Positions 35,966 through 56,904 are shown, counted from the stretch's first letter. The stretch is 64,000 nucleotides of DNA from Cyanophora paradoxa CCMP329 (GCA_004431415.1 QPMI01000084.1:1-64000); one strand, 5' to 3'. The notes: a model not told the origin generated them from the letters alone. Program-made: numbers and translations.

Positions 35966-38900
35966 CAGCCGAATGGAAGGCTATGTATGCCGTCGCCTGA
36001 TATGCAGCGCTTGCTATCGAATTGGGTCAGCGCTATCCGCTTGCTCTCCAAATCATATAAGTGGTGGCATCGCCGTTGCTTGTTTACTACTGTTACTGTT
36101 TTTGTGATCCCGTCAAATAGGCAGCGCTTAAAGTCGTCGAAATGCACCTCTTTCGAGGCTGTCCCGCTCATTTTTACCTTGTCGTAGCTCTCGGTGCGGA
36201 AAGCATATAGCTTCGGTCGCAGCCCCACATACTCCACTATCTTGACGTCGGGCATCTCATTTTTATATTTACCGGGAACCATCCGGTTCTCGGGACTATA
36301 AGGGCAATCTAAATAAGGGCTGATCGCTCGCATACCCGCTTCCAGATCCGCGGTCTCTATATACAGACAGAACGAGTCGGTATCGTGGAACAGCAGCTGA
36401 GCTTGCGAGAAAGTCGGTCGGATCACGTCGTAAAAGAAGCTATAATTATGGAGCTTCGCGGCATCCAGCACATAAGCGCCAATCGCAACCGGTTTATCGA
36501 GTTTTACGTGTTTGCTATACATTTCGAATGCGACCGCAGTCTCGTTTAATACATTCGTCGCTTTTACCAGTGGGCTCGCGGCGTATTTCTTAAACAGCTT
36601 CGTGCTATTCGCGATCTTTACCACTGAGCGCCCTCGACACGATTCCAGGCATTTACCGTAAATAGCATTGTTCATTAATTTAAAGAAGTCGCTCTCGAAT
36701 TTATTCCGGGCTTCCTTTCGCAGTTTCGTGTTTAGATCTATATAGGGCTTCATAAATGCAGCGGTTGCAAACGAGAGCACACGGTGGATCTTAGTAACTA
36801 CGATCCCCTTTTTTACCATATAGAGCAGCATCGGCTGAGACACCACGTAATTATATTTCGGAGTAAACGAGGCGATCAGCTTCGGATCTTTACTGAGCTT
36901 CTCGCCGCTAATCTCCAAAAGCCCACGCTGATATTTCCCGAGCATGTCCGCAGTAATTACCTCTTTACTCACGATCAGCGGGAAATCGCGATGGTCGCCC
37001 TTTAAATAGTCCGGATACGCAAGGTCGACCTCTATAAATGCACTCCGCCCTACAACCTCGGTAAAAGCTGTGCTCGTGTCGTCCCAGCGATAGTCCCCGA
37101 CCGGTAAAGGCTGACTTAGCGCATAGCCATATAGATTATTCGCATCCAATAGCACTATATGTTTATCCTCGCTATTAGCATCGGCATATCGTGTGGGCAT
37201 GGTCGCAAAGCCGCCCCTAATCGCCCGCTCAATAAATTCGTATTGATCCGCATCGCTGATCTGTTCTATCGCGACCCTCGTATGCTTTAACATCGCGTCC
37301 CACGATAGTCCCGGTGCGCTCACATAATGCGTCGGATCCAGTCCGTATTGCTCATGTGCGAGCCTATGTAAATTGCATTTTCGGCAAGCTTTCCCTATAT
37401 AATCGCCGCTTTGGTGACAGTGATCGCGCACAGGGAAGTTTTCGTGGGTAAATCGCTGATTGCATATATAGCAGTGTTTGGTGATTTTATAGGCTTGCTT
37501 TTGCGCCTCTGTGAGCGGAATCATAGGTGTATTAGTAAATAGGGTATTAAGCATCTCGCGGCACAGTTCCCCTAACGTGGTAAACATCTGACCCAGCGGA
37601 TCCACGCCCTCGAATTCGTGATTTTCAACATGCGAGCCCATAACTACATTAAGTGCCACCGACTTTACCTCTCGCTTGGTTCGATTTGGTTCATTAGGAA
37701 CCGGCACCGACTCCATCTCTACCTTGCAGTAGCAGACAGTAGGAAGCCACACCATTTTCCTTAGGTGTTGCAGTCCGAAAGTAATAAAGCTTCCGGGCTC
37801 CGGGCATTTACCTTTACTCAGCCGCCAATCGATACAGCGATTAGAGTCGGTGTGGCTATCGAGTTTCTCCTGTGATCTAAACCGGGACAAGCAGGTTTCG
37901 CAGTAGAAAATGCGCCCGTCGTTTGCTTTATCAAAGGTGGTCTTTAATAGGCGGCTCAGTGACATAATCGTAATATAGTGACCCTGTCCGTTTGCGTCCT
38001 CGATCAGCAGCAGGTTTACCTTCGATTTACGACGCGGATTACTTGACATGTGCAGTGGATAAAAGGTTTGGGTCGCATTGTCGGCGCCATATATATTAAT
38101 TGACAGCTCGGGATTATTGTCCTCGAAACGATCTATTAATGCAGCATCGCAAGCCACCGGGAAATTAATGCCTGAGAAGTCCAGCTCAGTCATCCACCGC
38201 CTATATTGGAACGGATCATTACGTTTGTGTCTGTTTATGTCGTTTCTGTGCAGCCATGCGAGGATAGCGTAATTAAAGCAGTCGTGACCATCGATATTCT
38301 TAATATTTACTGTGGCTCGCTTTAATCCAATCCATTCGGGGGTCTCAATGTAGCAACCGCCCATCGGCGCATATGACAAAACGGCGACATGTAGCTTATC
38401 TAATTTACTGAGCCGGTAGCTGTCGACCTGTATCATCTGTTCATTCATTTGCTGAGCTACACCCACTAACTCAGTGAGAATATTGCGCGACCTTGTGATT
38501 ACGAAATAATCGCTGTATATGTGTTTGGTGATAAAAACGTTAGGATCACTCACTTTTACGTATCGGCAGATGAAAGTAAGTCGCACCTTAATAGCTTTCA
38601 GTTCATCCAGCCTTTCTTTCAGCCGCCCAGGCAGATTTGCAGCGATGGTAGTGAGAAATTCCACCGGATCTAAGATTATCTGTTCATCCGCCTTATAGCT
38701 ATACCAGGCGTATGCTTTATTCATTGCGAAACCGTCTTCCTCATCGGGTTCTATGACGGCTAAGCGCCGCCCTTCGGTATAGAAGCGCTCCACATTTTCC
38801 AGGCGATTATAGAGCTCGTCGGCAATATTTGCAAGGTTAGCTAAGCGGGGTTTTCGATCTAAGATCGCCGCCCTCCGATCGTATTCGGCTTCGGTGATCT

Positions 38901-38982
38901 CGCCAGTGACTAAAAGACTACCTAACAAGCCTAATATTTCGTCTTTTTTCTCTTTTATAAGGCGATTAGTTTGGCGGGGCAT
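35962..38982 (-). CDS. Protein-primed family B DNA polymerase (Polinton type), apparently lacking the exonuclease domain
   Basis: DANNLYG, KLMNNAIYGK, FHDTDS, PKLYA; CFNYAILAWLH; C2H2 finger; endonuclease VII-like finger VRDHCHQSG..ACRKCN. Confidence 0.92.
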   Translation of the reverse strand: MPRQTNRLIKEKKDEILGLLGSLLVTGEITEAEYDRRAAILDRKPRLANLANIADELYNRLENVERFYTEGRRLAVIEPDEEDGFAMNKAYAWYSYKADEQIILDPVEFLTTIAANLPGRLKERLDELKAIKVRLTFICRYVKVSDPNVFITKHIYSDYFVITRSRNILTELVGVAQQMNEQMIQVDSYRLSKLDKLHVAVLSYAPMGGCYIETPEWIGLKRATVNIKNIDGHDCFNYAILAWLHRNDINRHKRNDPFQYRRWMTELDFSGINFPVACDAALIDRFEDNNPELSINIYGADNATQTFYPLHMSSNPRRKSKVNLLLIEDANGQGHYITIMSLSRLLKTTFDKANDGRIFYCETCLSRFRSQEKLDSHTDSNRCIDWRLSKGKCPEPGSFITFGLQHLRKMVWLPTVCYCKVEMESVPVPNEPNRTKREVKSVALNVVMGSHVENHEFEGVDPLGQMFTTLGELCREMLNTLFTNTPMIPLTEAQKQAYKITKHCYICNQRFTHENFPVRDHCHQSGDYIGKACRKCNLHRLAHEQYGLDPTHYVSAPGLSWDAMLKHTRVAIEQISDADQYEFIERAIRGGFATMPTRYADANSEDKHIVLLDANNLYGYALSQPLPVGDYRWDDTSTAFTEVVGRSAFIEVDLAYPDYLKGDHRDFPLIVSKEVITADMLGKYQRGLLEISGEKLSKDPKLIASFTPKYNYVVSQPMLLYMVKKGIVVTKIHRVLSFATAAFMKPYIDLNTKLRKEARNKFESDFFKLMNNAIYGKCLESCRGRSVVKIANSTKLFKKYAASPLVKATNVLNETAVAFEMYSKHVKLDKPVAIGAYVLDAAKLHNYSFFYDVIRPTFSQAQLLFHDTDSFCLYIETADLEAGMRAISPYLDCPYSPENRMVPGKYKNEMPDVKIVEYVGLRPKLYAFRTESYDKVKMSGTASKEVHFDDFKRCLFDGITKTVTVVNKQRRCHHLYDLESKRIALTQFDSKRCISGDGIHSLPFGC

Positions 38983-39112
38983 CTTTTACTTTAAGGGAAC
39001 ATTTTTATTTCGGGAAAGGACGCGTTCAAAAATGTGGAAACATATTTAAGGACAACTCAAAAAAATGACACATAGGAAAACATTTTATGTGTATCAGATA
39101 TAGAGAAACACA

Positions 39113-39607
39113 ATGAATACCCAAGAGATAATAGAATATTGTAAGACACTTACAAATATTCCCGTAACAGAAGCAACAAAAGAATGCACAGACAAGAACT
39201 ATCTCAAATGGGAAAAGAAGAATGCGCGTAAGAAGGTAATCTTTGTTATATCACAAACGCGTAAACATCAGGACATGTTTTTACATCTTAATATGGCTTC
39301 CCAGTTTTACCATCCGCATAGGCAGCACATATGCGCATTGGTTTACAAAGGATATAAAATGTTAATACCACTTGACATTACGAAAGAGAAATGCATTGAG
39401 GTAATACAAAATGTTATATCCGGCTATTCTAAAAAACAAGATGGGGAAGTTAAGTGTGTGATTTGTTTAGAGGTTATAGAAACGGAAGATTTAGCTTGTG
39501 CGCAGTGTAATAGTTCTGTGTGTGAATCTTGCATATCCAAAATGACTTATAAACAACGTTTTACCTGTCCAGTTTGTCGTATTGGGAGCTTGCAACAATA
39601 CCATTAA
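39113..39607 (+). CDS. RING-finger protein
   Basis: CVICLE..ACAQCNSSVCESC..CPVCR. Confidence 0.75.
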   Translation: MNTQEIIEYCKTLTNIPVTEATKECTDKNYLKWEKKNARKKVIFVISQTRKHQDMFLHLNMASQFYHPHRQHICALVYKGYKMLIPLDITKEKCIEVIQNVISGYSKKQDGEVKCVICLEVIETEDLACAQCNSSVCESCISKMTYKQRFTCPVCRIGSLQQYH

Positions 39608-39647
39608 TGGCAAGTGCCTAAGTTAGCTTACTGACGTTTTTTGTTTT

Positions 39648-39866
39648 TCGATAGGGTGGGGAGGGTGGGGTGAGGTGGGGCATTTTTTGAGTTCCAATAA
39701 AAAATTCTCCCACCCAAACATTTTGGGCAAAAAAGACCCCACCCAACCCCACCCTCCCCACCCTGTATTAACAACCATGATTTACACTGAAATTCAATGT
39801 GTTTTAAGTTATAAAAATAAGATATATCAATGTTAGAATGAAACCAGGTGGGGTGTAGGGTGGGGT
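39648..39866 (+). repeat. G-tract/C-tract inverted-repeat module immediately 3' of the helicase stop
   Basis: Same module as at 27363-28380. Confidence 0.85.
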
Positions 39867-40794
39867 CAGGCTTCCACATCTGAATCCTCGAATTTGGTGC
39901 CCCTTTTCTTTGGTTGCGGCTGAGGAGAATCATCTTCTTTAATCGAATCATCATCGATAAGCTTCAACTTTCGGAATTCAGACATCATCTCATTCCACAG
40001 GAAGTGATAGTTAGATTTTCCATTGGTCGTTTTCACTTGAATATATGTAGTCGTGCGCATCTCAGTATAGAACCGCTTGCTATTATAATCGTTTTTATAT
40101 TTGTTTTCAGAGATGAAGTCTTTGAACAGCTCCCATGTCGATGCAAGACCGCCCAGCTTGGTTTTCAGCTCTGTAACCCGCTCACTATCGACAAGCCACT
40201 TCGCAAACATAAGAATAATCGGTGCAGCCGCTTGCTGAACTAAGTAGTATCGGTTTGTTAGCGGTCTGTCTTGACTCCAATTGACTTTCTCGCAATTTAC
40301 TTTCGTCCTGAGATACTGAACGATATTTCGAATATTTCTCATATCATTCAGCCACTCAACAAGCGGGGCGAAATAATCCTTATTACAGCGCTGTTTGTCA
40401 CTCACCTCAATGACCACAAAGCGACGATCATCAGCCTCGATCTTGACAGGGACAGTATTGTTGCTTGTGAAAACGATTCGCGCGAAATTCTTCTTATCAT
40501 ACGAGTCTATTCCTTTGTGCTCAATTACAATCTTCGGGGCTGTGACTATATCTTTGAGAAGGTCGCTATGTTCAAAGGTGTCCTTTCCGGAAGCTTCATT
40601 TACAACGATCAGAATCTTATCCTCCCGATTGTGAGCAAACCGCCCGAATAAATCATCCTTTGGCTTGGCTGTCGAGTATGCCAATGCATCACCGAGGATC
40701 TTCTTCTCAAAGGTATCAATGAGCATATTCTTTCCAGCGCCTTGGCGACCTAGGAAGATGAGGGACACGTTATTTAGTTCCCCCGGCTTTTGCA
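39866..40794 (-). pseudogene. SF3 (D5-like) helicase: 3' half of the interrupted primase-helicase gene
   Basis: QKPGE..GRQGAGKN (Walker A), IVVNEA (Walker B), FTSNN, DDRRF. Confidence 0.9.
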
Positions 40795-41198
40795 AGCTCA
40801 GCACTGCGCCGTGTCTCCAAAAAAATACCCGCGAAAAAATCAAAAACAAATCAGAAAACAAACCATTCCCAGTAACCCAATCTTGAATATCAGTAAATCT
40901 CAGTAAGCCTCAGTAAGAAACATTGAATTAATCGAAGTTATATCATAATCTCGATTAATTATATCTTATCGAAGTTATATCTTTTTTATGCGCCGTGTCT
41001 CCAAAACAATTCCCAAGAAAAACAAACCATTCCCAGTAACCCTATTCGTATTCAACAGTAATCTCAGTAAGCCTCAGTAACAAAAATCGAATTAATCGAA
41101 GTTATATCTTAAATCTTATTTATCGAAGTTATATCATAATCTCGATAAATTATATTTAATCGAAGTTATATCCTTTTCATCCGCCGTGTCTCCCATGA
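40795..41198 (+). repeat. Left TIR of element C (404 bp)
   Basis: Reverse complement of 51933-52336; contains three CGCCGTGTCTCC subrepeats and multiple ATCGAAGTTATATC. Confidence 0.95.
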
Positions 41199-41633
41199 AT
41201 AACTAAGTAAGTTTAGTTAAAACCTCGAAAGAAAAACCTCTCATTTTTTACTGTATTTTTTGAACGATTTTTTACTGTATTTGTTACACTAGAAACAACA
41301 ATAGAAACGACAATAAAAACAATAGAATTTTAATTGTTTTTGAATCGTATATACGTCAATATATCACTGTAATATATATCATATATATCATAGGAAATCG
41401 ATTTATAGTCAAACCTATAACATATCAATTTGTGTATATGTGATATATATTCATATATGACGTCATGATGATGATGTATATGTATCTGATATATATGACA
41501 CACCGGCTTATTCGGGAGATCATGACGATCACGGCGATGTGTATATTGTCATGATGTATATGTATATATGTGTGACGCAATCTGATTGGTGTGCTACTTG
41601 TTTTGTTGTATCCCCCTTCAACTTCTCCCCAGG

Positions 41634-41887
41634 TTTATATCACAGATAACATCTCAGATAATACCTCAGATAATACCTCAGATAATACCTCAGATTATAT
41701 CTCAGATAATACCTCAGATTATATCTCAGATAATACCTCATATATTAATTTTAAATTTGCTGGCTTCTGATTGGTTCATGCCACAGAGTAGGGACTTTTC
41801 ATCAAATGCGCCATAAAATGCGCCATAAAATGCGCCATAAAATGCGCCATTAAATGCGCCATTAAATGCGCCATTAAATGCGCCATG
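41634..41887 (+). repeat. Two 12-bp minisatellites: (CAGATAATACCT)~9 and (AAATGCGCCATW)7
   Basis: At 41634-41740 and 41804-41887. Confidence 0.9.
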
Positions 41888-42130
41888 AAAACCCGGGGAA
41901 TAAACCATAGTAGGGTATATGATCTCACGGTTCAAGTTTCGCTCACGTTTCACCGAAATTTCGGTAAATCGATTATCGGCATCTTCAAACGCTTGTATCT
42001 CATCACCAGATTATGATCTCGCAACGTTTTGCATAGCGTTTTGAAGCGCTTGTTAAGCTCTACACAACTACGTAATCATCGTATTATTTCAAGCTACCTT
42101 GTCATACAATATTTCTCACAAATCGTCCTT

Positions 42131-42889
42131 TCACACACTGATTGTGGTCATTTCTCGTTGGATCCGAGCCATCTGACCCCTTTTAATTGCTTTTCTCTTC
42201 ACAAACTTCTTAAAGCCCTTCATATCATCATCTGTTAGTACTGCTCTATCAGTATAGGTCTTGATATCATAACCTTGCAGGCTAGCTATGACAGTTTGGT
42301 AATTATAACCCCATAGTCTATGCAATTCCTTGTAGGTCTTCTTATCCAAACCACCATTGTACTCATCAAAGGCGCAATTGAACTCTTTCTCGTTCCCAAG
42401 AATATTGAAAAATACAACGAACTCCACATTGCGACGAATGGTAGTAGAAATAGAACACAAACGCTGAACATTAAAGATTACCGAGATTGAATAATGTCTT
42501 CCACTCGTTACTAATTTAGATAACACAGCCGAATTATGCATATCCAAATTTGAACCTATCATGTCATCGAGTATGATAACTAGGTTATTTCGCTTTTCGT
42601 TATTCTCAATTCGTTTCTTTTGCATACTGATCAATCTCAAAACAATGTTATCATCCCACTCTTCATAGATGTTATCGGGATGGGTGATGTCATTGAATTG
42701 TCCAGTAAAAGCTGTTGAACTAAATATAACGATTTGATTGATCTTGTCACGAAGCTCGTAAAGTAAGTATTTTGTGAACATTGTCTTACCTGTATTGGAG
42801 CGACCAACATTCAAAATTCTTGTCGGGATTCGAACCGTCTTACTCGGATCGAACTCCGGAATATCATCAAGATTTACTGTGTTATCCAT
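42131..42889 (-). CDS. A32-like genome packaging ATPase
   Basis: GRSNTGKT, LVIILDDM, SGRHYSISVIFNVQ, IRRN. Confidence 0.9.
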   Translation of the reverse strand: MDNTVNLDDIPEFDPSKTVRIPTRILNVGRSNTGKTMFTKYLLYELRDKINQIVIFSSTAFTGQFNDITHPDNIYEEWDDNIVLRLISMQKKRIENNEKRNNLVIILDDMIGSNLDMHNSAVLSKLVTSGRHYSISVIFNVQRLCSISTTIRRNVEFVVFFNILGNEKEFNCAFDEYNGGLDKKTYKELHRLWGYNYQTVIASLQGYDIKTYTDRAVLTDDDMKGFKKFVKRKAIKRGQMARIQREMTTISV

Positions 42890-42969
42890 TACAGTAATAA
42901 GATAAAAAACAAAATAAAGTACACACCTACAAATAATTGCGCTTCCTACACTAACAAAAGAAAAGAACT

Positions 42970-44196
42970 TTAGAAGTTCGAGACTTTCAGGGTAGAGATG
43001 TTGTAGCCATTAAGTACCATAACATTGTGTCGGAGGGCATAGATATCAACCTGAACAGGAGCGGCATCAGTGCATCCGGAAACAGTGAGATCCATGTAAC
43101 TCGAGCTGCTGTTGAAGAAATCCTGGTAACCCATAACCGAGTTCCGAAGCGAATCTTTTCCAGACTTGGAAAGAACAATTCCGTAAACATTTCCAGACTC
43201 GAATCCGTACGTGGTATTGCCCACAGTAACACCCTTGTAGTGAGAAGGAATGTGATTGACAGCAGAGAGGAAACCGGAAATGGGTTTGTTAGATATATCC
43301 AGGGAGCGATTGTTGTGGAAGATCTGGAACTGATCAATCTTAACAGCAGATTCATGACCGCAGAAATCCGAGTGAGTGTAGGTGTTAAGTTTGTTCACCT
43401 CTCGAACAGTCATCAGAATCGAGTGAACCAGACCAGAAACATTAGCGAGTGTAACCTCAACCGATTCACCAGCATCAGCGGTTTTGAGCGCTCGGGTCTT
43501 CTTGTGAATGACCTCTGTGATCGGGATGCGAATGCCACCTTGTTCGTTCGCCATTTTAAGGAGTGTCTCAGCCTCAGCCGAAGCAATGTTTACGAATTGG
43601 CAGATCAGAGAGCAATCCGCAAAGGTTACAGATCCACCAGCCGGAACTTGGACAATCGCAGCATCACGGAAATCAACCTCGATTGTTGGCATATCGGCTA
43701 GCGTACATAATGGGAAATAAGCTTCTTCCCAGAAAGCAGCGGGGATTCTAACGATGTATTCCATTGCTTCATCTGTGCTTTCACGATCTGTCTCTTTGAA
43801 GTAACCGAGAGAAGCATACATGCTGCTCATGGTAGCGTGATCATTATCGACCAGGGCGTTTACAGTGATCCAATCACCAGGGATAATATACTTGAAACCA
43901 CCATGAACGAAACGGACCTCATTAATAAAAGAAGAACCACCATTGGGGAGGGTGCAGGCTACACCACCACCAGTGGCAATCTTGAAATAGAGCGAAACAC
44001 CAGCAAGGAGTTGCTTGCGAGGTAGATCAAAGTAAGCGGTATTCTTGAAGCCAAAAGTGTTGCCCCGGGGACGAACTTGCTCGAGGAATGGTTTGTATTT
44101 GGGGTTGGTTCCGATTTGGAGACCAGGGGAAAGATAAATTTGATCGGAACCGGGAGTTACGAGGAGTTCCTTCAGGGTAGTTCCAGTGAGTGCCAT
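42970..44196 (-). CDS. Double jelly-roll major capsid protein
   Basis: 408 aa, next to the ATPase and penton; colinear homology with 57699-59147 (F.LPR, V/MRIP, GY.D...S.SS, A..HN). Confidence 0.75.
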   Translation of the reverse strand: MALTGTTLKELLVTPGSDQIYLSPGLQIGTNPKYKPFLEQVRPRGNTFGFKNTAYFDLPRKQLLAGVSLYFKIATGGGVACTLPNGGSSFINEVRFVHGGFKYIIPGDWITVNALVDNDHATMSSMYASLGYFKETDRESTDEAMEYIVRIPAAFWEEAYFPLCTLADMPTIEVDFRDAAIVQVPAGGSVTFADCSLICQFVNIASAEAETLLKMANEQGGIRIPITEVIHKKTRALKTADAGESVEVTLANVSGLVHSILMTVREVNKLNTYTHSDFCGHESAVKIDQFQIFHNNRSLDISNKPISGFLSAVNHIPSHYKGVTVGNTTYGFESGNVYGIVLSKSGKDSLRNSVMGYQDFFNSSSSYMDLTVSGCTDAAPVQVDIYALRHNVMVLNGYNISTLKVSNF

Positions 44197-44248
44197 CTCT
44201 TATGTTTAAAATACCAAAAGAAATTTTTAAAATGCTTTATTAAACAGA

Positions 44249-45136
44249 ATGACGCGTTACTATCTCAATATTGATTCCAGGGACCGATCGGATGGAACCC
44301 CAACTAATTTCACATACAGACTCCCTTATGCGATCCAAAAGGTCAGAGCCTGTCGAGTAACGAACTTTGAGATGTTTCACAATCTTTACAACCTCTCTGA
44401 AGTAGGAACCCTCACCACACAAACACTCGATAATGCTGGGAACCCAAAGAATAGAAACAACGAAGTCCTCCGAGGTGCATATACACCGGATTCACTGGTG
44501 AATTATCTGATCGCTCGCATTGGATCCCAGCCCTATAATCAAGCGGGTGGCGGAACTTACACTCGCCATTTCTATGTAACCTATGATCCCACAACATTGC
44601 TTCTAAGGTTCATGTGTGAGGTTCCATTCTCAATCACTATGAACACTCAACTCTTAGCCAATTTCTGTGGTTTTGAAAATGCTAACACACTGTACCAATC
44701 GAGTCCTCTATCATCTAATGTCACAGTTGGAGCCTTTACTTATGCTCACTACATTGATAGTGAAATGCCATTAGATCTACTATTTAATTCCTATTTGCTT
44801 CTTCATGTTGATCCACTGAAAGGAAGATATGTGAGCAATAACAAACGAGATAACAATGCTATCGCGAAAATTGAGATTGACCAAACGGTTGGCAGTCTAT
44901 TAAAATATGATTCATCGAATAATTCCATGATCGTTCACGAGCAGAATGGCTTGGTTGAGGTTGAGACTCTAGATGTGAGACTTTCTTACTGGAATGGAGC
45001 CACAGCAGACATTACTACCGACTGGTCGATGACTCTTGAACTGATTACTGAAGATGATAAAGATCTGACGAAAAAAGCATTGAAGAATGTCATAAAAGAG
45101 TTGGAGGGACTCTACCTGCCGTTCTCACGGTCATAG
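44249..45136 (+). CDS. Minor capsid (penton) protein
   Basis: YLNIDSRDR..FTYRLP N-terminus; LDVRLSYWNG..WSMTLEL C-terminus. Confidence 0.8.
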   Translation: MTRYYLNIDSRDRSDGTPTNFTYRLPYAIQKVRACRVTNFEMFHNLYNLSEVGTLTTQTLDNAGNPKNRNNEVLRGAYTPDSLVNYLIARIGSQPYNQAGGGTYTRHFYVTYDPTTLLLRFMCEVPFSITMNTQLLANFCGFENANTLYQSSPLSSNVTVGAFTYAHYIDSEMPLDLLFNSYLLLHVDPLKGRYVSNNKRDNNAIAKIEIDQTVGSLLKYDSSNNSMIVHEQNGLVEVETLDVRLSYWNGATADITTDWSMTLELITEDDKDLTKKALKNVIKELEGLYLPFSRS

Positions 45137-45172
45137 GAAATACTGTAGAATAAATTTGTTTCAATATTACAA

Positions 45173-45934
45173 ATGGCTCGCAAGACTCAACCCAAGAATT
45201 TCTTAGCCAAACCAGCCGCTGAAGCGGATGTTGGCAATGGTGAGAATGGAAGGAACTGGTATAAGAAATCGAAAGGACTCGCTGCATACGGAACTGGTGA
45301 CCTCGAAAAGGAAGTCCATAAAGAACGAAACCAATTCACCCAAGCCACTACGAAAAACAGTAATGATGATAATGCCCTTGTTGACCAAGTCCCACTGAAC
45401 CGCATGCCCGGAGCCAAACGAGGAATCAAGAAAGGACAGTTCAAATCATCCACAAAGGACAAGGTTGCCTCATCATCGACACTGCTGAAACTGCTTGATG
45501 GTGGTGAGCGACTCTACTCAACCTATTCCGAGAAAGACCATCGCAACCGCTACTTTATTCGTTCAACCACTGGTGGACTGAAATCTGTAACATATCAGTA
45601 TGCTAAGAGTCTTGTTGATGGTATTGCAGCAGAGACCAAAAACGAAAACAAGATCAAGGAACAGCCAATCACAAAGGAAAAGGTTGAGAAGAAACCAGAA
45701 GTAACCCATGAAGTTATTCCCGAACCTGTTCATGTGGCAAAAGACTCACCTACAGAATTGATTGCAAAGACCATTGAGTATCAAGACTCCAACAAAACGG
45801 ATTTGCCGGTTCTCAATAAGTCGATCCTTCGGGTTGCCACTTCGCAGGCTGATCCAGTCAACTCGATTCCAAATGCTGCCCCAATGGTCTCTGGATTCGC
45901 CAAGCTTGGTATAAGACCCGGTTATCGCCGTTAA
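45173..45934 (+). CDS. Hypothetical basic protein (possible core protein)
   Basis: Intact 253-aa K-rich ORF. Confidence 0.65.
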   Translation: MARKTQPKNFLAKPAAEADVGNGENGRNWYKKSKGLAAYGTGDLEKEVHKERNQFTQATTKNSNDDNALVDQVPLNRMPGAKRGIKKGQFKSSTKDKVASSSTLLKLLDGGERLYSTYSEKDHRNRYFIRSTTGGLKSVTYQYAKSLVDGIAAETKNENKIKEQPITKEKVEKKPEVTHEVIPEPVHVAKDSPTELIAKTIEYQDSNKTDLPVLNKSILRVATSQADPVNSIPNAAPMVSGFAKLGIRPGYRR

Positions 45935-46282
45935 GGATCAATCTGAATAATATAATTTCTCAAACATTGTTAGCGCTACGTAACCAATCCTATCCCGTAG
46001 GCTCAAAACTTCTTCATTTTTATGGAGGCGTTGTAGAGCGAAGTGAAATATCCATAGGTAAATCACTTTAATCACCTGTTCTACCGGTTCAGTGGTAGAA
46101 ACTTGCAGCCGACAAGTGAACCTTCTGGGTATCGGTGGCTTTATCATTTTTCCAGCATCTTCTTTCGTACTGGATGCTCTGCAATCGGGACCAAAATTTG
46201 ACAGGAGTTTATTCGCTATATACAGACAGAAAAACTACTTAAAGATTTCTTAACATATATTAAGAGAGTAGAAAAGGACAAC

Positions 46283-46540
46283 ATGCCAATCAGTGAGGCT
46301 CAGAAGCGTGCTACTTATCGTTATCGTAAAACTGAAAAAGGTCAGGAATATTTGAAAAAGTACAATGCCAGATTTGCAAAGCAAATGCGTGACTTATACC
46401 ATACTGATGAGTGTTACAGAGCCATGAAGATCGTTGAGAGTTCCCAGCGTCTCTATGCTTCCAATGCAGTCTGCTTTGTGAAGTATCTCTATGGTGTCCC
46501 GTATTCTAACCGTGGTCGCAAATCGAAATATCTCTGTTAA
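46283..46540 (+). CDS. Small basic, probably DNA-binding, protein
   Basis: SEAQKRATYRYRK..MRDLYHTDECYR; similar to 54244-54474. Confidence 0.6.
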   Translation: MPISEAQKRATYRYRKTEKGQEYLKKYNARFAKQMRDLYHTDECYRAMKIVESSQRLYASNAVCFVKYLYGVPYSNRGRKSKYLC

Positions 46541-46781
46541 TCGTTTTTCTCAGCGCGATCTGCTCTGAGAAACCCGTGGGAAACGCGCTGGAACCACAAA
46601 TATAATCATTCTGTTATTTTTAGAGTTCGATGATCGAGCCAACCCTTTGTTATTTTTATGAATGCCCTCGACTAAATTTATTTTGTTGGAGACTTTTGGT
46701 TTTGTCGGTAAAATTTGACGCGAGTATAAAAGTATTTAAAGAAAACTTTTGTAGGTATATATTAATAGAGTGAACAAAGAA

Positions 46782-49700
46782 ATGCCTCGACCAAGTAATC
46801 GAATTTCGAAAAATTTGCAGGATGAGATTCTTGGCTACTACATGCAAGCAAAAGTAGAAGACAAATTGACCCGAGAGCAGGATATCTATTTCTTGAGAGA
46901 ATTTACTTTCAAAGCAATTAGAATTCCAAAGTTGATTGATATCAGAGATACACTGAGAGGTATCGTAGAGCCTCGTTTGTATCGCAAGCAGGAGAAGAAG
47001 GAGAAGAGGGCTGAGAGAGCCGCTAAGAATGTTGAGAAGCAAAACAAGAAAGCGGAGCAAGCGAGAGAGCGGAAGCGCTTGACTCCTTTCCAGCAGATGA
47101 TTGCTAACCTCCGTGAGTTTGTTGAAAACTCACCTGGAAACATGGTCACCCTGAATGTGAGACTCTTCCGTGAGTTGCAAGAGGGAGAACAAGCCCCTGC
47201 AAATGCAAACAGGGTCACTGAGAATGGTGTGACCTACATTGAATCGAAGAGGCTTCGGAACAATCGCCCCTTTGGTATCCAGTGTACCAAGGCAGCTTTT
47301 CTGAATGCTCTCGGTCTGGTTCAATCCACCTTCAATACGTTCCCATGTGTTGAGGGGACTGTCATTGCTGAATTTATTGCAGCAGTTATTGAGTTTAACT
47401 CGACCAATCAAGATTTCCGCTACCTAAAACTAATTGAGCAAGATACCTACCCCGATATTATGACAATTGAAAGAGTCATCACGACAGATAATGAAGAATA
47501 CATCCCAAGAAATGAACAAGTCCTCAGAGACAATACAAACGCTCCAATGATTATTTCGAATTTCATTAAAAACGAAGGGAACCCCCAAGCCACCACATTC
47601 AAGGAAATGTTCTTGAAAGGTGATTCATTCAAGGTTGGGAAGTGTGTTTTCGATGTCCTCATCAAATGGTTTGGAGGAGCGTTTGAGAAGGCTAAGACCA
47701 AAGGGAAATACAAGCGAATCGATTGGTCTTACAACGGACTCTTTAAGATGGTGAATGGGCGAGACCCTGTTGAAGGAGATGATTGGGGCATTTCTTTCAA
47801 GTCCATTTCGGAGAAGGTTCTTGACCCACTGCGCCTAGGCATGGTTACAATTGGAAAGGACGACAGAACCCCTGTCCCTGAACTGACTTTCCTGCCCAAG
47901 ACCAGGAACACACACTTGACCCCTTCTGTTGCATATGTGAAGATTGAGAATGGTCACATGTATTTGTTAAATCACAATATTAAGGCTCTCACACAGTCCT
48001 TCAATGGCTCCAAGCCAAAAGATACCAATGTTCCACTCAGTTCTCGTTACAAGATTATAAAGCAAAGAAGGTTCAAGGAGTTTGCCACAAATCCCGATGA
48101 CATTCTGAGAATTGTCAGGTCTGACAATCCAAAGAACCAATCGAGCATTCGAATCTGCTATGGTGGTTCACTGGATGAACTACTCAGAGAGTTCATTGTG
48201 GTGCATAATTATCAGGTCCAACCTGGGTTCTCCCAAATCGGAAAGGCAACCCATATTCGTTTCACTATTGACGATAAGGATGTTGTCGTGACCCCACCTG
48301 GTAACGATACAGATGTGGAAACAGCTTTCGAGATTAGCTTCAAGAATGCTGAGTACAGAGATAAATTCGAGAAACTAAATCTGGATATGTATAGGTCTCT
48401 AATCAACACTTCCAACAAGAGTACTTACAATGAGCAAACCATAAATGCATTCAAGAATGGAGTGCAGACTGCCCTTCGTGGTCTCTTTGATGTGGATGAG
48501 GAGACCTTTGATGAAATTCGCTATAACACAGATATTTACGAGTTCGATATGTGCAAAGCATACCCTTACATTGTAGCCTTGATGATCAAATTCGTTCCTG
48601 TTCTCAGCAAGTTCGATGTCTTCAAGAGTGTGACAATCACAGATGCAGAGCAAATCGAGGAATACAGCTTCTATTACGTGAAACTGGACGACAAATACTT
48701 TTTCAAAGCCAAAGACAAGAACGGAAAGGAGTACGAAGCAAACACCTACAACAGATACAAGAGGATGATCATTGATTCCAAGTACAATGTTGTTCCTGGT
48801 TTGGTTCTCAAAAAGCATTTCGAGGATTTCAAGGATGACATCTCCATCAAAGCGGTTCTGCGACCTTACAAACTCATTCCCAACCTTGCAGGCAACACAG
48901 TTGCTCGAATCTTAGATAGCGACCTCGATCCTGTTGATAAGAAGCAGATCTTGGTGAGTGCAATTGGGCAAACTGGAAAGCAACGAAATAGCAGAGTGAA
49001 AACCACCATTTTCCACAACAGAGACGATGCGATCGAGTTCCAGAAACAGAACGGAGGGGAGGTTAAAATTTACCTCTTTGGTGAGACTCTTGCCACTTAT
49101 GAGGAGACAGAGTTCGTTCTGTGTGAGGAAGAGATGACCGAACCCCATATCTACTATGTCAATCAGGTAGCAGAAAAGCAGCTCATTGATGGCTTCATGC
49201 CATTGTACACTACCCTCTTGTCAATTATGAGGATGTGTATGTATGAGAAGTGTGTCGAACTCGCTAAACAGCAGATCCGACCACTCGCTTTGAACACCGA
49301 TTGTGTTTATGGGATCGCTTATGAACCCATTGCCCCAGTGTCATTCGATCGCAATGCCTTTGAGAATATTGGAAAATTCAGTGTGAAATGCTGCCCCAAT
49401 TTTTCTAAAAAGTTTTCAGGTGAGAAGAAAGACCTCGAGGCAAAACGAATTCGTTACGGAAAGTTTGAGAGAGCGACTGACTTTGTGAAAATCGAGAACT
49501 ACAGTTATACCAAACACTCTGTGGTTGATGAGTATGACACAACCGCGATTTGTGATTTGCTGGCTACACAAAAACGATGGGTTCTTCTCGGATCAGTTCC
49601 AGGAGTTGGAAAGACTCACATGACAGTTGAATATGGGAAGCGTTTCAAAAATCCCCTCTATATTGTTCCGACCAACAAGCGAGTGAAGGAAATGAAAGAG

Positions 49701-50870
49701 CAAGGATTGAAAAATGTGAAGACAATCTATGATGCCCTTCATCTCAAAATCGATGAGTCGAACATGGATGAAATCGTAGGAGGGAATGCATCTGGTTTGG
49801 TAGAATTTGATTGCATTGTTATTGATGAGATCTGTCAGTTTAAGATTGGAGAACTGGCAGCCCTGGACCACATCATGAATGAGCAGTTCCCAGATAAGGT
49901 ATACATTGCCACAGGTGACCCGTATCAGAACCCACCCATTCAGGATATGAGTGTTGATCAAGATGAGTATTACCTTGATATCCTCCATCGCCTGTTCCCC
50001 AACGAATTGTTACTCCAAGTGAACAAGCGCCATGAGACTGAGGAAGATCGCAGAAAGGTTGAGCAAATTCGAATTGATTTATTCGAGAAAGGTTTGAGTG
50101 TAAGTGAGGTCCTAGCAAAGTACGGGTTCAAGGTTGTGGACGAATTGGCAAAGACAGATAAAGGCATTGTGTATACAAACCGCAAGGGTGCAGAGGTGAA
50201 CCTAGCCCTTCACAAAATGAACTACGGGGATAATGTTTCCATTTATGCTGGCGGGATCAAAGTTGTTGCAAAGACTCGTATTGCAAAGGGTGGGAAGATA
50301 GTTCATAATGGATTTGTCTACAAGATTGTCAAGCTCTCAAAGGACAGTTTCATTATTGCTGACATTGCCAACAAGAAGGATGAGATTGTTCTCAGCAGGG
50401 ATGCAGTCAAACATTTCGCCCTGGCTTACGCAAACACCTGCCATGTTGTTCAAGGTGATACGATTCGCTGCAAAGGGAACAGGGTAGTCGTGTTCGAAAC
50501 TGGGGCGCCATTTGTTTCAAAGAAGTGGCTATATGTTGCTCTCACTCGAACCACAAGGCTGGATGATGTTGTTATTTACCATGATAATTTCGAAATGGCT
50601 CACTGGAAAGTGTGGAAAAGAGAGAATAACGAGAAGATTTCGACTTACAAGGATCAGGACCGAGCAGCAAACAGACAATTCGATGAGCATGATTACATCA
50701 CATGGGATTGGATCAAGCAGCGATATGGGAAGCAGTATGGGCATTGCCTGCGATGCTACAATGCCATGGACTTTGAAGATATTTCGGTAGATCGAATTAA
50801 TAATGCTGTGGCTCACATTACCAAAAATTGTTTCCTCTCTCATATTAAGTGTAACTGTGCCGCCCAATAA
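46782..50870 (+). CDS. Divergent pPolB - SF1 helicase - HNH-like fusion
   Basis: Pol motifs YEFDMCKAYP, KQILVSAIG, LNTDCVY. SF1 motifs GSVPGVGKT, IVIDE, TGDPYQNPP, YANTCHVVQGDT, LYVALTR. C-terminal CLRC..SVDRINN..H...NC...H..CN. Confidence 0.85.
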   Translation: MPRPSNRISKNLQDEILGYYMQAKVEDKLTREQDIYFLREFTFKAIRIPKLIDIRDTLRGIVEPRLYRKQEKKEKRAERAAKNVEKQNKKAEQARERKRLTPFQQMIANLREFVENSPGNMVTLNVRLFRELQEGEQAPANANRVTENGVTYIESKRLRNNRPFGIQCTKAAFLNALGLVQSTFNTFPCVEGTVIAEFIAAVIEFNSTNQDFRYLKLIEQDTYPDIMTIERVITTDNEEYIPRNEQVLRDNTNAPMIISNFIKNEGNPQATTFKEMFLKGDSFKVGKCVFDVLIKWFGGAFEKAKTKGKYKRIDWSYNGLFKMVNGRDPVEGDDWGISFKSISEKVLDPLRLGMVTIGKDDRTPVPELTFLPKTRNTHLTPSVAYVKIENGHMYLLNHNIKALTQSFNGSKPKDTNVPLSSRYKIIKQRRFKEFATNPDDILRIVRSDNPKNQSSIRICYGGSLDELLREFIVVHNYQVQPGFSQIGKATHIRFTIDDKDVVVTPPGNDTDVETAFEISFKNAEYRDKFEKLNLDMYRSLINTSNKSTYNEQTINAFKNGVQTALRGLFDVDEETFDEIRYNTDIYEFDMCKAYPYIVALMIKFVPVLSKFDVFKSVTITDAEQIEEYSFYYVKLDDKYFFKAKDKNGKEYEANTYNRYKRMIIDSKYNVVPGLVLKKHFEDFKDDISIKAVLRPYKLIPNLAGNTVARILDSDLDPVDKKQILVSAIGQTGKQRNSRVKTTIFHNRDDAIEFQKQNGGEVKIYLFGETLATYEETEFVLCEEEMTEPHIYYVNQVAEKQLIDGFMPLYTTLLSIMRMCMYEKCVELAKQQIRPLALNTDCVYGIAYEPIAPVSFDRNAFENIGKFSVKCCPNFSKKFSGEKKDLEAKRIRYGKFERATDFVKIENYSYTKHSVVDEYDTTAICDLLATQKRWVLLGSVPGVGKTHMTVEYGKRFKNPLYIVPTNKRVKEMKEQGLKNVKTIYDALHLKIDESNMDEIVGGNASGLVEFDCIVIDEICQFKIGELAALDHIMNEQFPDKVYIATGDPYQNPPIQDMSVDQDEYYLDILHRLFPNELLLQVNKRHETEEDRRKVEQIRIDLFEKGLSVSEVLAKYGFKVVDELAKTDKGIVYTNRKGAEVNLALHKMNYGDNVSIYAGGIKVVAKTRIAKGGKIVHNGFVYKIVKLSKDSFIIADIANKKDEIVLSRDAVKHFALAYANTCHVVQGDTIRCKGNRVVVFETGAPFVSKKWLYVALTRTTRLDDVVIYHDNFEMAHWKVWKRENNEKISTYKDQDRAANRQFDEHDYITWDWIKQRYGKQYGHCLRCYNAMDFEDISVDRINNAVAHITKNCFLSHIKCNCAAQ

Positions 50871-51931
50871 TGGATAGTGTATTATCATTCAAAAAGTATA
50901 GGCAGAAACTGATTAATGAAAAAGTGAGTTTTGATGAAAAAGAGTTGAAAAAGAAGTTCAAAAACTCAGAACTCCAGCAAATTTACAAGAAACCAAGGAA
51001 ACCCAAATCGTTTCTTCGCATAGTGGCAAAGCCTAGATCGTTTCAAATCGATATAACATATTTCAGAGGGTTTCAGACTGCCAACAATGGCATTTTCAAA
51101 ATGCTTAGTTTCGTAGACATACTTAGTCGCAAAGGATTTGTTTATCCTTTTAAAAACAGCAGTGAGATCCCGAGCATTTTAAATAGGTTCAAGCAAGAAG
51201 CAGGCAAAGTTAATGCTCTCTCTGGGGATAATGAGTTTTCCCAGGCAGTATACCGAAATTGGTGCAGTGAACATGGTGTAATGCTATACACAGATGTGGC
51301 AAAGGATGACCACATCACAGTAGGAGATAAACTGGGGATAATTGATAGGTTCACTAGGACTTTCAAACAGTATCTCAGAAAATCGATGACAGCAAAGGGA
51401 ACCACGAAATGGATCGATCTACTTAGTGATGTAATTGACTTGTATAATAGCAGTCCCCATTCTGCATTGAAAAATGACTCTCCAAATGCAGTGTATACAA
51501 ATGAAGATAAACAGTTATTTATTTACATGAGGGATACTGTTCACAACAATCGTGTAAAGGAGGCTGATACTAATCAAGTGAAACCAGGAGACACAGTTCG
51601 AGTTTTGCAACCAAAGGGATTGTTTGAAAAAGAAGGTGCGCAATTCAGTCAGAAGGTCTACACTGTTGCAAAGGCTGATAGGAATCGTTTCAAAGTGCTT
51701 GAAGATAATGATGGTGAGGAAACAAAAGAAGTGAAGAGGAGATTTAAGAAACAAGAATTGCAAAAGGTGAATAAAGATGATATCATTAAGATACCATCAC
51801 AAAAACGGATTCAGCAGGTTAATAAAACGAATAAAGTGAATCGATTGGTAGCAAAAGAAGGCATAAAACCCAATCGAAGTAATGTTGTAAGGAGAAGATA
51901 CAATCTGAGAAGTGGTTTAACGAAACGCTAA
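50870..51931 (+). CDS. rve DDE integrase
   Basis: FQIDI, DILSRK, SGDNEF, GIIDRFTRTFK, YNSSPHSAL. Confidence 0.88.
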   Translation: MDSVLSFKKYRQKLINEKVSFDEKELKKKFKNSELQQIYKKPRKPKSFLRIVAKPRSFQIDITYFRGFQTANNGIFKMLSFVDILSRKGFVYPFKNSSEIPSILNRFKQEAGKVNALSGDNEFSQAVYRNWCSEHGVMLYTDVAKDDHITVGDKLGIIDRFTRTFKQYLRKSMTAKGTTKWIDLLSDVIDLYNSSPHSALKNDSPNAVYTNEDKQLFIYMRDTVHNNRVKEADTNQVKPGDTVRVLQPKGLFEKEGAQFSQKVYTVAKADRNRFKVLEDNDGEETKEVKRRFKKQELQKVNKDDIIKIPSQKRIQQVNKTNKVNRLVAKEGIKPNRSNVVRRRYNLRSGLTKR

Positions 51932-51932
51932 A

Positions 51933-52336
51933 TCATGGGAGACACGGCGGATGAAAAGGATATAACTTCGATTAAATATAATTAATCGAGATTATGATAT
52001 AACTTCGATAAATAAGATTTAAGATATAACTTCGATTAATTCGATTTTTGTTACTGAGGCTTACTGAGATTTAGTGAGATTTGGAATTGGGTTACTGTGA
52101 ATGGTTTGTTTTTCTTGGGAATTGTTTTGGAGACACGGCGCATAAAAAAGATATAACTTCGATAAGATATAATTAATCGAGATTATGATATAACTTCGAT
52201 TAATTCAATGTTTCTTACTGAGGCTTACTGAGATTTACTGATATTCAAGATTGGGTTACTGGGAATGGTTTGTTTTCTGATTTGTTTTTGATTTTTTCGC
52301 GGGTATTTTTTTGGAGACACGGCGCAGTGCTGAGCT
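51933..52336 (-). repeat. Right TIR of element C
   Basis: Ends ...GGAGACACGGCGCAGTGCTGAGCT, followed by TSD TTGCA. Confidence 0.95.
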
Positions 52337-54033
52337 TTGCATCATGTGGGCAAACCACTTTTTAAGATAATCGAATGTCTTATCATCTTCGCCTGACATT
52401 AAATATAGATGTGTCAGAAAAGGCTGAATCATCTCTTCTGTCACATCCTCGGGGGGCGGCTCCTCGAATTCTTCATGATCAATCTTGAATCCAGGGTAGA
52501 GATTAAACACAGACTTGCATTTCGCGCTCAGCTTTGCAGGAGGCGGCAGGAAATCCATATAAGTGGATCGTGTCGCCCTTGGGTCAGTAATCCATTCAGG
52601 TAGCGTTTTTACCCACTTTTCGGTTTGGTTCTCAGTCCCCTCATTGAGAATCACCTTGTGAAACAGATGGGGAAAATGTTTGGTCGCCAATTTCGTAATA
52701 TCTTTCGGTCGCCAGGATAATAGCTGTTCATCCCAATACATGACAGTGCCGATGCTCTCGATGTGATGCAGCCTCGCATTTAAATATCGCAGATGGACTT
52801 CAAAGCTATCGACCATAGGTGGAATGGGGGCAGTCTTGTAGTCAATATCGTCGGAATCCTCAGGCTGAAACGAATATTTCTTGGGAATAGCTTATTATAA
52901 CTGTCGCTGTTATCCTTTTTCAGCCAGTAAACAATCGAACCGAATGTGACTCGCTTCCCTTCCACCATTTTCTTGCCTTTGCAAAGGCTCATGAACTTCT
53001 CATGACAGTCATCATATTCATATTTTTCGCTTTTCTCCGAGAACTTATGAAATAGCTCTACTTGTTGCTTGCGAGGGATATTGTTGTCTTCGCAAGTATT
53101 GATTATAGCAATACCTACGTCGATCCATGTCTTATATTCATTAGCTCGCTCGCCACTGAGGCTCATAATGACTTCTTGCAACAGTTCAAACGAAACCTTA
53201 TTATCTTTGAGATCCTCCAACACCTCCTCCTTCTTCTTCACAGGTTCTTTACAGGGCTTGTCCTTAACAGACTTGGGCGCCACCGTTTGCTTAGGTTCCT
53301 CAGGCTTTGTAGCTTCCTTTGGTTTATCGACCGCAAAGGCTGACATGGTGTCTACTTCCACCCACTTAGTGGGGCGATCGAAACATTGCACCAGGAAAAA
53401 ACCATCGTGCATGCCTTCTTTCTCGCAATCAATAAACTTAGTGAACACCACATTCTTATCGACATCGTGCTTTGATTTGCTTTGAGCGTCCAAAGCTTCG
53501 CCTTTGCAGCAACGGAGGCAGATCAGGTTTTGAGTTGTTCCATAAACGCCACTATCGAATTCGACATTTTTGATGAGACCCATCGCTTTAAAAAGCTTTG
53601 GAATGTCTTCGTGGCGGCAGACCAGATCGGTAAATACGAAATGCCCGGAAATCTTGAACTTAGTGACATTCTCTTTGATTAAATGAACCCGGCGATGGCG
53701 AACAGCAACCGCAATTGTAGATCCCGACAGGGTTTGCAATTTCTTGCGCATTTCCCTGATGATCTCTTCGGCTTCCTTATAGTTGTCGGCTACATCAGGT
53801 TTCAGATCAACGAACTTGTCCAGATCCAGATAAACACGAGTCACTTGATCAGGTTGTATGCATTCCGCCCATGTAGGATAGGTCATATTGTCCCGTTTCT
53901 TTGAGTTATTGATGCGCTCAATAATTTCATCATCGGTTAACTCAACCAAATTGGACTTATTGCGTGCACCTTGCAGACATTTCAGAAAGGTGCCCTTGAC
54001 ATTAGAGAATGCGAATTTCGTGATAGCGTCCAT
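52337..54033 (-). pseudogene. AEP primase + PriCT-2: 5' part of the interrupted primase-helicase gene (also a -1 shift in the G-run at 52883-52885)
   Basis: YLDLD, ISGH, DSGVY; EYKTWIDVGIAI..FHKFSEKSEKY; FNLYPGF; KKWFAHMMQ. Confidence 0.9.
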
Positions 54034-54243
54034 CTTCTCTGTTTTACTCTAAGCGGAGAAAATATTTTTCAGGTTGTTCATTTTTTGCGCATTATCCTTA
54101 AATCCCTTTACAGTTTTTTCCCGATGATAAAATCGATTAGCATCGGGGCAATCGATAGTATGGTAAGGAGCTTCCCGATTTACATCGGAAAGCCGCACGA
54201 AAAATAAGGAATGCGCTCAGCGGCAATCGAGAGTTTGCGTTTT

Positions 54244-54474
54244 CTAATACTTACGGGGGCGCCCCCGCTTTCCCATATGGCTTCCCTCCTCGGCTTTGCG
54301 ACGATAATACGATTCCAAAGCCATCTTCTTCTTGAATTCGCGATATTCGGGATCCTCGTTATACCGATTCCGCATTTTGATGATTTCACGGATCCGATAA
54401 TTAAGTCCGTCGCCTTTCTTCATGTCCTCAGTGACAAGCTTTGCCTCAATATTTACAGCAGCGATGGTGGTCAT
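54244..54474 (-). CDS. Small basic protein with C-terminal AT-hook
   Basis: MRNRYNEDPEYREFKK..KRGRPRKY. Confidence 0.65.
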   Translation of the reverse strand: MTTIAAVNIEAKLVTEDMKKGDGLNYRIREIIKMRNRYNEDPEYREFKKKMALESYYRRKAEEGSHMGKRGRPRKY

Positions 54475-54691
54475 CTTTTCGTTCCTTACTATAAGCGGAG
54501 AAAATATTTTATCAGTCGTATTTCCTATTTCTTCTTTAAATCATTTTCTGAGCTGTCATTTTTTGTGATCGAAGCGAGTTCTTCTCTACGTTTTTTAATA
54601 GCGACTTCCAATGCGTATTGCGCGCGTTTCCTGTATAGGATCGCGTAGAGATCGGGTCGGGCATTCGATACTATTTAACGCGAAAATAGTT

Positions 54692-55039
54692 TCAGCGATC
54701 GTATTCGCCCAAATAAAGCGGATTTATTGGCGGATACGGGGAATCAACGCGAAAATGACCTTCCACGGAATTAGGGCACGAGCGGCGTCTTATATAGGAT
54801 ACTTGCACGTCTTCTATTGCTGTCTGTGGGACTATATTGGAGTTCGCAGGCACAGGCGAGGGCGATTGAGATCGGGGACGATCGTGATTATCACTGTGGT
54901 TGGAATATACAGATGATCGCCTACCTCCATTATCCTCGTCCGAAATGTCAAACTCTACGGTTGTGTCGCAGCATCCGGACTTACAGTGAGATATGAAATG
55001 CAGGTGAAACATCTCAATGCATTGTGTGATGAAATTCAT
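54692..55039 (-). CDS. Hypothetical protein with an HCKSGCC motif
   Basis: The ORF track extends to 55216; the start is uncertain. Confidence 0.4.
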   Translation of the reverse strand: MNFITQCIEMFHLHFISHCKSGCCDTTVEFDISDEDNGGRRSSVYSNHSDNHDRPRSQSPSPVPANSNIVPQTAIEDVQVSYIRRRSCPNSVEGHFRVDSPYPPINPLYLGEYDR

Positions 55040-55910: not shown

Positions 55911-55933
55911 TTATCATTATGCGAGAAATTTAT

Positions 55934-56845: not shown

Positions 56846-56904
56846 TTCCCTTATTAGAAAGATATAAAAATAAGGAAAGGTGACAGCCTTTATCAACTTG
56901 GGTT

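Follow-up and report, generated by a model that had tools for sequence, protein, structure and literature searches.

Based on the collective evidence gathered here, an 11,542-bp segment in the genome sequence of the glaucophyte alga Cyanophora paradoxa CCMP329 is best understood as the integrated, uninterrupted genome of a Tlr1-type polinton-like virus (PLV), interrupting the primase-helicase gene of a larger and distantly related viral element. We hold this interpretation with good confidence, including that the host is likely C. paradoxa and the insertion likely recent. The segment lies at positions 40795-52336 of the window, the whole 64,000-nt stretch of DNA analysed (GCA_004431415.1 QPMI01000084.1:1-64000). 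The smaller element is referred to as inner and the larger one as outer. Capsid protein, packaging ATPase and ends identify the inner element as a PLV, and gene content alone suggests that it would be competent to form virions.

Ends, insertion site and coding capacity

The element begins with AG and finishes with CT, each end lying within a terminal inverted repeat (TIR; Table 1). The two TIRs are unlike in 10 of 405 aligned columns, nine of these within one 28-nt patch, and their outer 238 nt are identical. The clustering of the differences at 41033-41060 relative to the right-TIR counterpart looks like recombination between TIR variants, rather than ageing. Both tips are bordered by a target-site duplication (TSD) of 5 bp; a 6-bp reading needs a right end without its terminal T. 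Public contigs from all three DNA runs join position 40788 to 52336 and omit 11,547 nt, the element plus 5, a joint that is absent from the one run guessed to be RNA. Over 1,170 nt, empty-site contigs of runs X1 and X2 show 0 substitutions and one gap relative to the flanks. The unoccupied form need not be an allele and may come from a paralogue; in either case the recipient site has barely diverged, and the insertion therefore appears to be recent.

Seven stop-free open reading frames (ORFs) of 252, 408, 295, 253, 85, 1362 and 353 aa are present, giving a coding fraction of 78% at a GC content of 40.5% (62% in window positions 1-22000). Since the longest ORF in 100 shuffled versions of the element reached at most 155 aa, six of the seven ORFs are above chance length; the 85-aa ORF is, by length alone, within chance. 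Gene remnants were not seen between the seven ORFs, and those for the replicase and the integrase overlap by 1 base. The tandem arrays of the non-coding left arm are a possible origin or regulatory region. Genes for a fibre, a lipase or a methyltransferase were not recognised among the ORFs of the element. No maturation protease family was matched in Pfam (all seven ORFs) or PHROGs (the six ORFs scanned), and a very divergent protease is still conceivable, both orphan ORFs being without assignment. A preliminary description, made from the sequence, had given an 11.5-kb element with intact ORFs, near-identical TIRs and no maturation protease; these points are borne out, with exact coordinates. 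Its "two small orphans" are indeed two ORFs without assignment, but one of them has 253 residues.

Table 1. Features of the inner and outer elements, with positions counted from the first letter of the window.
Feature	Position	Strand	Basis or remark
Left TSD, TTGCA	40790..40794	+	empty-site joint skips element + 5
Left TIR, ~404 bp	40795..41198	+	begins AG; internal sub-repeats every 164-191 nt
Two 12-bp tandem arrays, 8.5 and 7.6 copies	41643..41890	.	non-coding left arm
29-nt motif (24 nt exact)	41981..42009	.	DNA comparison; non-coding, common with outer left end
A32-like packaging ATPase, 252 aa	42131..42889	-	Pfam Pox_A32 E 7e-16
Major capsid protein (MCP), 408 aa, by model	42970..44196	-	AlphaFold2 model, Foldseek, VIA
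Candidate penton (minor capsid), 295 aa	44249..45136	+	ESM Atlas matches; homologous to two outer-element ORFs
Orphan ORF, 253 aa, Lys/Glu-rich	45173..45934	+	no match in Pfam and PHROG
Doubtful ORF, 69 aa	45938-46147	-	
Orphan ORF, 85 aa, basic	46283..46540	+	no match in Pfam and PHROG
Putative pPolB-palm/SF1-helicase fusion, 1362 aa	46782..50870	+	Pfam, PHROG, Atlas, motifs
rve-type integrase, 353 aa	50870..51931	+	Pfam rve_3 E 0.0026, rve E 0.0097
Right TIR	51933..52336	-	finishes CT; inverted-repeat pairing with 40795-41198
Right TSD, TTGCA	52337..52341	+	read directly beside TIR tip
Outer larger polinton-like element or composite	27037..64000	.	left limit approximate, right end beyond window
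Outer rve	33448-34890		left part
Outer pPolB	35962-38982		left part
Outer RING	39113-39607		left part
Outer split AEP/PriCT-2/SF3-helicase gene, 3' part	39866..40794	-	SF3 helicase, Walker A; DUF5906 E 1.5e-15
Outer split AEP/PriCT-2/SF3-helicase gene, 5' part	52337..54033	-	PriCT_2 E 3e-13
Outer ATPase	55934-56845		right part
Outer HNH-AP2	56905-57624		right part
Outer MCP	57699-59147		right part
Outer penton-like	60010-61212		right part

Capsid proteins and predicted replication machinery

The 408-aa ORF is, according to its modelled fold, a double-jelly-roll MCP. The AlphaFold2 model (pLDDT 66, pTM 0.73), built with an alignment of five database relatives and the MCP of the outer element, matches the PBCV-1 capsid chain in Foldseek (E 8e-18) and in VIA (Z 27.0, rmsd 3.3, 328 residues aligned), with Z about 15 to Sputnik and mavirus. 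An exhaustive protein search with the MCP gave the five relatives at 24-28% identity; one is a C. paradoxa protein, and two belong to contigs that are 11.7 and 15.5 kb long. Word-based protein searches with MCP, replicase and ATPase returned no relatives, and a sequence search of the PDB gave no meaningful match. Related loci were not detected in viral contigs, metagenome contigs or phages by searches whose insensitivity does not let absence be concluded. The ORF adjoining the MCP gene probably encodes the minor capsid (penton) protein: its ESM Atlas feature matches of 0.97-0.98 are to viral clusters, at a recognition score under the tool threshold, and one of these clusters (0.97) is named Sputnik V18/19 and has PF21507 in 26% of its members. 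The 253-aa orphan is possibly a virion-internal protein. The 85-aa orphan, which weakly resembles a 76-aa ORF of the outer element (pairwise E 0.012), is predicted as possibly DNA-binding.

In the 1362-aa ORF, a superfamily 1 (SF1) helicase is recognised at residues ~921-1259 by Pfam (AAA_19, E 2e-7, plus Viral_helicase1) and by the Dda-like helicase of PHROG (E 1e-17). Ahead of it, PolB-like motifs A (~589), B (~721) and C (N-T-D, 838) occur in order, Asn replacing the first Asp of motif C. The top three Atlas results for residues 230-930 have borderline scores of 0.88-0.90, with DNA_pol_B_2 in 14-45% of their members. From motif patterns we take Cys288/His392 to be a candidate vOTU site and the C-terminal Cys/His domain to be HNH-like; a Pfam scan of pieces of the ORF matched neither vOTU nor HNH. 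The first 33 residues (46782-46880) are identical at 13 positions to the start of the outer pPolB (38884-38982; pairwise E 0.005), and the common N-terminus is perhaps a priming or targeting segment. The integrase contains an acidic triad of D61, D120 and D159.

Both the double-jelly-roll fold that the preliminary description wished to see checked and its assignment to the PLVs, now by fold, A32 ATPase and TIRs, have held up. Within its gene list, the ATPase, MCP and SF1 helicase stand as named; the penton is probable, the palm is at motif level, and the integrase is below threshold.

Recipient element and shared motif

The flanks of the inner element are themselves viral and represent two halves of one AEP/PriCT-2/SF3-helicase gene, in which the SF3-helicase reading frame is open right up to the insertion point. 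A frameshift lies near 52,800-52,870 in the window copy of this gene; within 52336-53367 public contigs and the window are offset by a single gap, so that the shift either arose by mutation in this copy or reflects faulty assembly. The MCP (24% identity, E 7e-14), ATPase (35%) and integrase (25%, E 4e-18) of the two elements, together with their probable pentons, are homologous by sequence comparison, at 24-35% identity. The preliminary description mentions neither the nesting with its empty site, nor this homology, nor the shared motif.

The sole nucleotide similarity detectable between the elements is a 29-nt motif, whose outer copies are at 29217-29245 and 32764-32792. Its exact 24-mer has three matches in the window, confined to the left arms of both elements, and none in 100 shuffles. 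In both elements it has short tandem arrays on one side and the end of the leftmost gene on the other. At 42011, just past the motif, public contigs of all three DNA runs diverge, which suggests that many families carry it. A protein-coding origin of the 24-mer was considered and rejected: no ATG-led ORF longer than 17 aa runs across it (frames of at least 25 codons), and synonymous changes are absent. A full-text literature search for PLV satellites with a common packaging signal returned no paper.

The public contigs also characterise the families involved. Seventeen public runs, all bearing the label of a single organism and none listed as RNA, contain at least half of the sequence words of the window. 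The 609 contigs of run X1 on 38000-56000, which takes in DNA of both elements, are distributed as 249, 135, 136 and 89 at 99% or above, 95-99%, 90-95% and below 90% identity, respectively, and this wide range indicates that inner and outer elements both come from multi-copy, varied families. In all three DNA runs the capsid module exceeds the replicase bins by a factor of about 1.5-4 in summed contig depth, which is no measure of copy number and only hints at module shuffling. Divergence among the contigs sets in near 46,240-46,500. Long public contigs are collinear with 2-7 differences over 2,666-2,895 nt of the polymerase and over 1,761 nt of the polymerase end plus integrase. Expression was considered from run X19, the one guessed to be RNA, whose contigs cover portions of the genes for ATPase, MCP, penton, polymerase and integrase, and was not used as evidence: 47 of the 62 contigs are less than 95% alike and so stem from relatives, and DNA may be present in this run.

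The outer pPolB is a DNA_pol_B_2 protein by Pfam (E 2e-11). The window contains no inverted partner of the outer element's left end, which may be marked by an imperfect palindrome of 71 nt (27037-27107) where the GC content drops. A tandem duplication of 3.55 kb at 99.5% identity (26123-29667 and 29665-33214) spans the GC-rich flank plus the AT-rich left end of the outer element and can be genuine or an assembly artefact. A ~225-bp unit with an internal hairpin, found at 27360, 27679 and 28151 (plus duplicates) and at 39647-39866, flanks the rve-pPolB-RING block. Similar bracketing repeats are described, in the relevant part of preprint 10.64898/2026.10.13.758929, for possibly mobile replication modules. 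Because of these bracketing repeats and of a step in public contig depth, which falls between the outer pPolB and AEP genes, the outer element may be composite. An upstream motif of the AAAATATTTTCTC-CTTA-AGTAA type is common to three outer genes (52780, 54244, 34954; including 54044-54068 and 54486-54510) and is a candidate promoter. It was not seen within 60 nt upstream of inner genes, and a search upstream of 20 inner and outer genes gave no shared promoter motif beyond AT-rich words. Window positions 14500-22000 hold host genes with many short GC-rich introns, among them one for a phosphatidylinositol transfer protein (Pfam IP_trans, E 1e-33). Another host gene there, on the + strand, is presumably patatin-like, judged by motifs alone.

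Discussion

The gene set of the inner element is that of the published Tlr1-like PLV architecture, and its lack of a protease is therefore normal. The section of PMC5499653 on Tlr1 gives MCP, minor capsid protein (mCP), ATPase, RVE and SF1 helicase with no protease, and it describes PLVs and Tlr1 as typically without the maturation protease. MCP, a probable mCP, A32 ATPase, rve integrase and TIRs are shared with Tlr1 and Tlr1-like PLVs as portrayed in passages of PMC5499653 and PMC11161782, as is, at motif level, a putative fusion of PolB palm and SF1 helicase whose motif C is without its first Asp. For this fusion PMC11161782, in the part considered, gives the order TP-vOTU-palm-S1H, to which a C-terminal HNH may be added, and predicts polymerase activity despite the lost Asp, an activity on which the corresponding passages of PMC5499653 and PMC11161782 disagree. 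Unlike Tlr1-like PLVs, usually of 14-40 kb, the element has seven genes in 11.5 kb and a glaucophyte host; the C-terminal domain of its replicase looks HNH-like, where the Tlr1 comparison has GIY-YIG. The likeness is one of gene content, no Tlr1 sequence relative having been found, and the Tlr1-type assignment is accordingly made without a tree.

Other systems resemble the element in part. Transpovirons (~7 kb, in the passage of PMC5499653 devoted to them) are likewise linear TIR-bounded DNA with a PolB/SF1-helicase type of fusion; they are without capsid genes, whereas the element keeps MCP, ATPase and a penton candidate, plus an integrase. With Maverick/Polintons and mavirus-like virophages it has in common an rve integrase, TIRs, AG...CT ends, a short TSD and the double-jelly-roll capsid. 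It differs from Maverick-Polintons (Polintoviricetes) in that Pfam matched no Ulp1/adenain-type protease and in having, instead of a stand-alone pPolB with exonuclease, a helicase fusion with no DNA_pol_B_2 match. From virophages (Virophaviricetes) it is set apart by the structural similarity of its MCP, closer to PBCV-1 than to Sputnik and mavirus, and again by the absent protease.

Endogenous PLVs of C. paradoxa, as tabulated in PMC10120064 and PMC12220804, show a near-identical MCP, and the glaucophyte elements a protease-free gene content. The MCP gene_49165 in Table S2 of PMC10120064 has, by eye, ~7 changes in the first ~299 residues (~98% identical). Table S4 of the same paper records 366 MCP hits in the C. 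paradoxa genome, which by column count fall in two host-specific columns outside the named groups, and zero in the virophage columns. These MCP matches, together with the intron-rich, GC-rich flanks and the single organism label of the public runs, make C. paradoxa the likely host. By column count, the 156 glaucophyte elements in Table S6 of PMC12220804 include 0 with protease, 34 with SF1 helicase and 85 with rve integrase. The usual PLV size is quoted as 14-40 kb, elsewhere as 18-28 kb, and the element is under the former range, a descriptive criterion; MELD viruses are defined, in the passage of PMC8502044 concerned, as 10-50 kb. Table S3 of PMC12220804 gives minima of 6.8-12.9 kb for TIR-bounded PLVs (six cryptophytes 6.8, 7.0, 8.3, 10.4, 11.2 and 12.2, with medians of 20-29 kb), in genomes with medians of 19-29 kb, and gene counts down to 7-9. 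The earlier wording "unusually reduced" thus survives as a place at the small end of the PLV range, but not beyond it, the missing protease being normal and TIR-bounded PLVs of 6.8-12 kb being tabulated. The small size reflects missing accessory genes, with the core ones kept. Of "recently active", the recency of the insertion is upheld by the intact TSD and the unsubstituted flanks.

Nesting has precedents. In Halocafeteria seosinensis, 5 PLVs and 9 virophages, complete and with TIR and TSD, are nested within other viral elements (passages of 10.64898/2026.07.28.741278), as is the element described here; host and capsid types are different, and a cis motif common to guest and recipient does not feature in those passages. 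Composite loci of C. paradoxa itself are reported in part of 10.64898/2026.10.13.758929 (EVE_QPMI01_83). A search of literature text and tables, with figures, preprint supplements and deposited sets outside its scope, gave no description of the size, gene map, nesting or shared motif of the element; the composite C. paradoxa locus in Figure 6E of Barth et al., or deposited EVE sets, may already show it. The claim of novelty is thereby narrowed: a near-identical C. paradoxa MCP and a Tlr1-like gene set are published, and the 11.5-kb nested map was not found. What appears to be new is a compact nested element with a shared 24-nt site; its gene set, its capsid gene and PLV nesting elsewhere were already known.

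Several observations weigh against an intact Tlr1-type virus. The labels palm, vOTU, terminal protein and HNH are held at motif level because neither Pfam, which returned no polymerase for residues 560-900, nor a single-sequence model of the replicase, uninformative at pLDDT 31, gave support; they come from motifs and one borderline Atlas result. Both Pfam scores of the integrase are under the curated cut-off, and its third catalytic position is Asp where the outer integrase has Glu. The penton identification derives from sequence-based matches. Only one full-length copy of the small element was seen, and the near-identical MCP in Table S2 of PMC10120064 stops early in another frame, so that some copies would be broken or mis-assembled.

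Part of this could be accommodated if the element had arisen by deletion or recombination from a larger member of its family, had retained both TIRs and moved as a transposon, with enzymes perhaps supplied in trans; 11.5 kb would then be a trait of this copy, not of a lineage. The atypical acidic residue of the integrase agrees with such an origin, as do the depth excess over the capsid module and the contig divergence near 46,240-46,500, which would point to further replication modules joined to the same capsid module, and the position of short TIR-bounded PLVs in the low tail of the sizes in Table S3 of PMC12220804. Seven whole ORFs, free of intervening remnants and with the 1-base overlap of polymerase and integrase genes, speak against it, and so do the long collinear contigs. 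We regard this explanation, which is partly compatible with an integrated Tlr1-type virus, as improbable while granting it some weight. A relationship of parasite and helper has also to be considered, in which the small element is a satellite of the larger family that uses a common cis site, borrows trans factors (fibre, transcription, packaging) and inserts into, and disables, the replication gene of its helper. The confinement of the exact 24-mer to both left arms, the disrupted AEP-SF3 gene, the alike polymerase N-termini and the unrecognised fibre gene are all in keeping with that relationship. Yet capsid, ATPase, replicase and integrase are all encoded by the element itself; a single insertion says nothing on target preference; the motif, given four homologous genes, is maybe inherited, or is bound by a host or giant-virus factor; and the passages of 10.64898/2026.07.28.741278 present nesting as a frequent occurrence in another protist. 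A satellite is in our judgement unlikely. Finally, the nesting could have arisen in assembly by fusion of two repeat families: among the contigs listed none crosses an element-flank junction, while the empty form is assembled, and the 3.55-kb tandem duplication is close by. A 5-bp duplication at both TIR tips and a skipped length of element plus 5 are the signature of an integrase, not of a mis-join, and rare junctions are lost from short-read contigs; we give an artefact hardly any credence.

For the integrated Tlr1-type PLV, the following mechanism is proposed. Starting at the TIR ends, the pPolB-palm/SF1-helicase fusion (terminal-protein/vOTU/palm/helicase) would copy the linear genome by protein priming, its helicase unwinding ahead. 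The rve integrase would join the ends to the target with a 5-bp stagger, leaving the 5-bp duplication, and the ATPase would pump the genome into an MCP/penton shell for which no maturation protease is needed. The ends, TSD, empty site, capsid fold (as a model), ATPase and helicase of this scheme are seen in the present data, and its other steps are adopted from the pertinent passages of PMC5499653 and PMC11161782. The element is probably mostly silent and would be reactivated by a helper giant virus or when host silencing is lost, which is plausible given the CpG methylation on repeats and viral genes and the giant-virus insertions of C. paradoxa documented in the part of PMC12344493 concerned. 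The landing place was most likely opportunistic, as viral elements are abundant in the genome and such an insertion costs the host little.

Lastly, the shared 24-nt site is a candidate packaging, replication or regulatory signal between elements otherwise unlike in DNA. In the boldest extension, the element would represent a stable ~11.5-kb lineage of integrating capsid viruses with five core genes that parasitises larger PLVs of the same alga through the 24-nt site, trans factors and replication-gene insertion. We think this unlikely; if true, one PLV would here act as satellite to another, in a design close to the least that a self-sufficient member of this virus class needs, and its alga is amenable to axenic culture (PMC12344493, in its passage on culture). 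As it stands, the element is a clean and compact example of a known architecture, reducing the pPolB-helicase/rve PLV to five recognisable genes and two orphans, and its value is practical: with a compact element in an axenic alga, both the polymerase activity of the fusion and the formation of particles without a giant-virus helper become questions that can be tested here.

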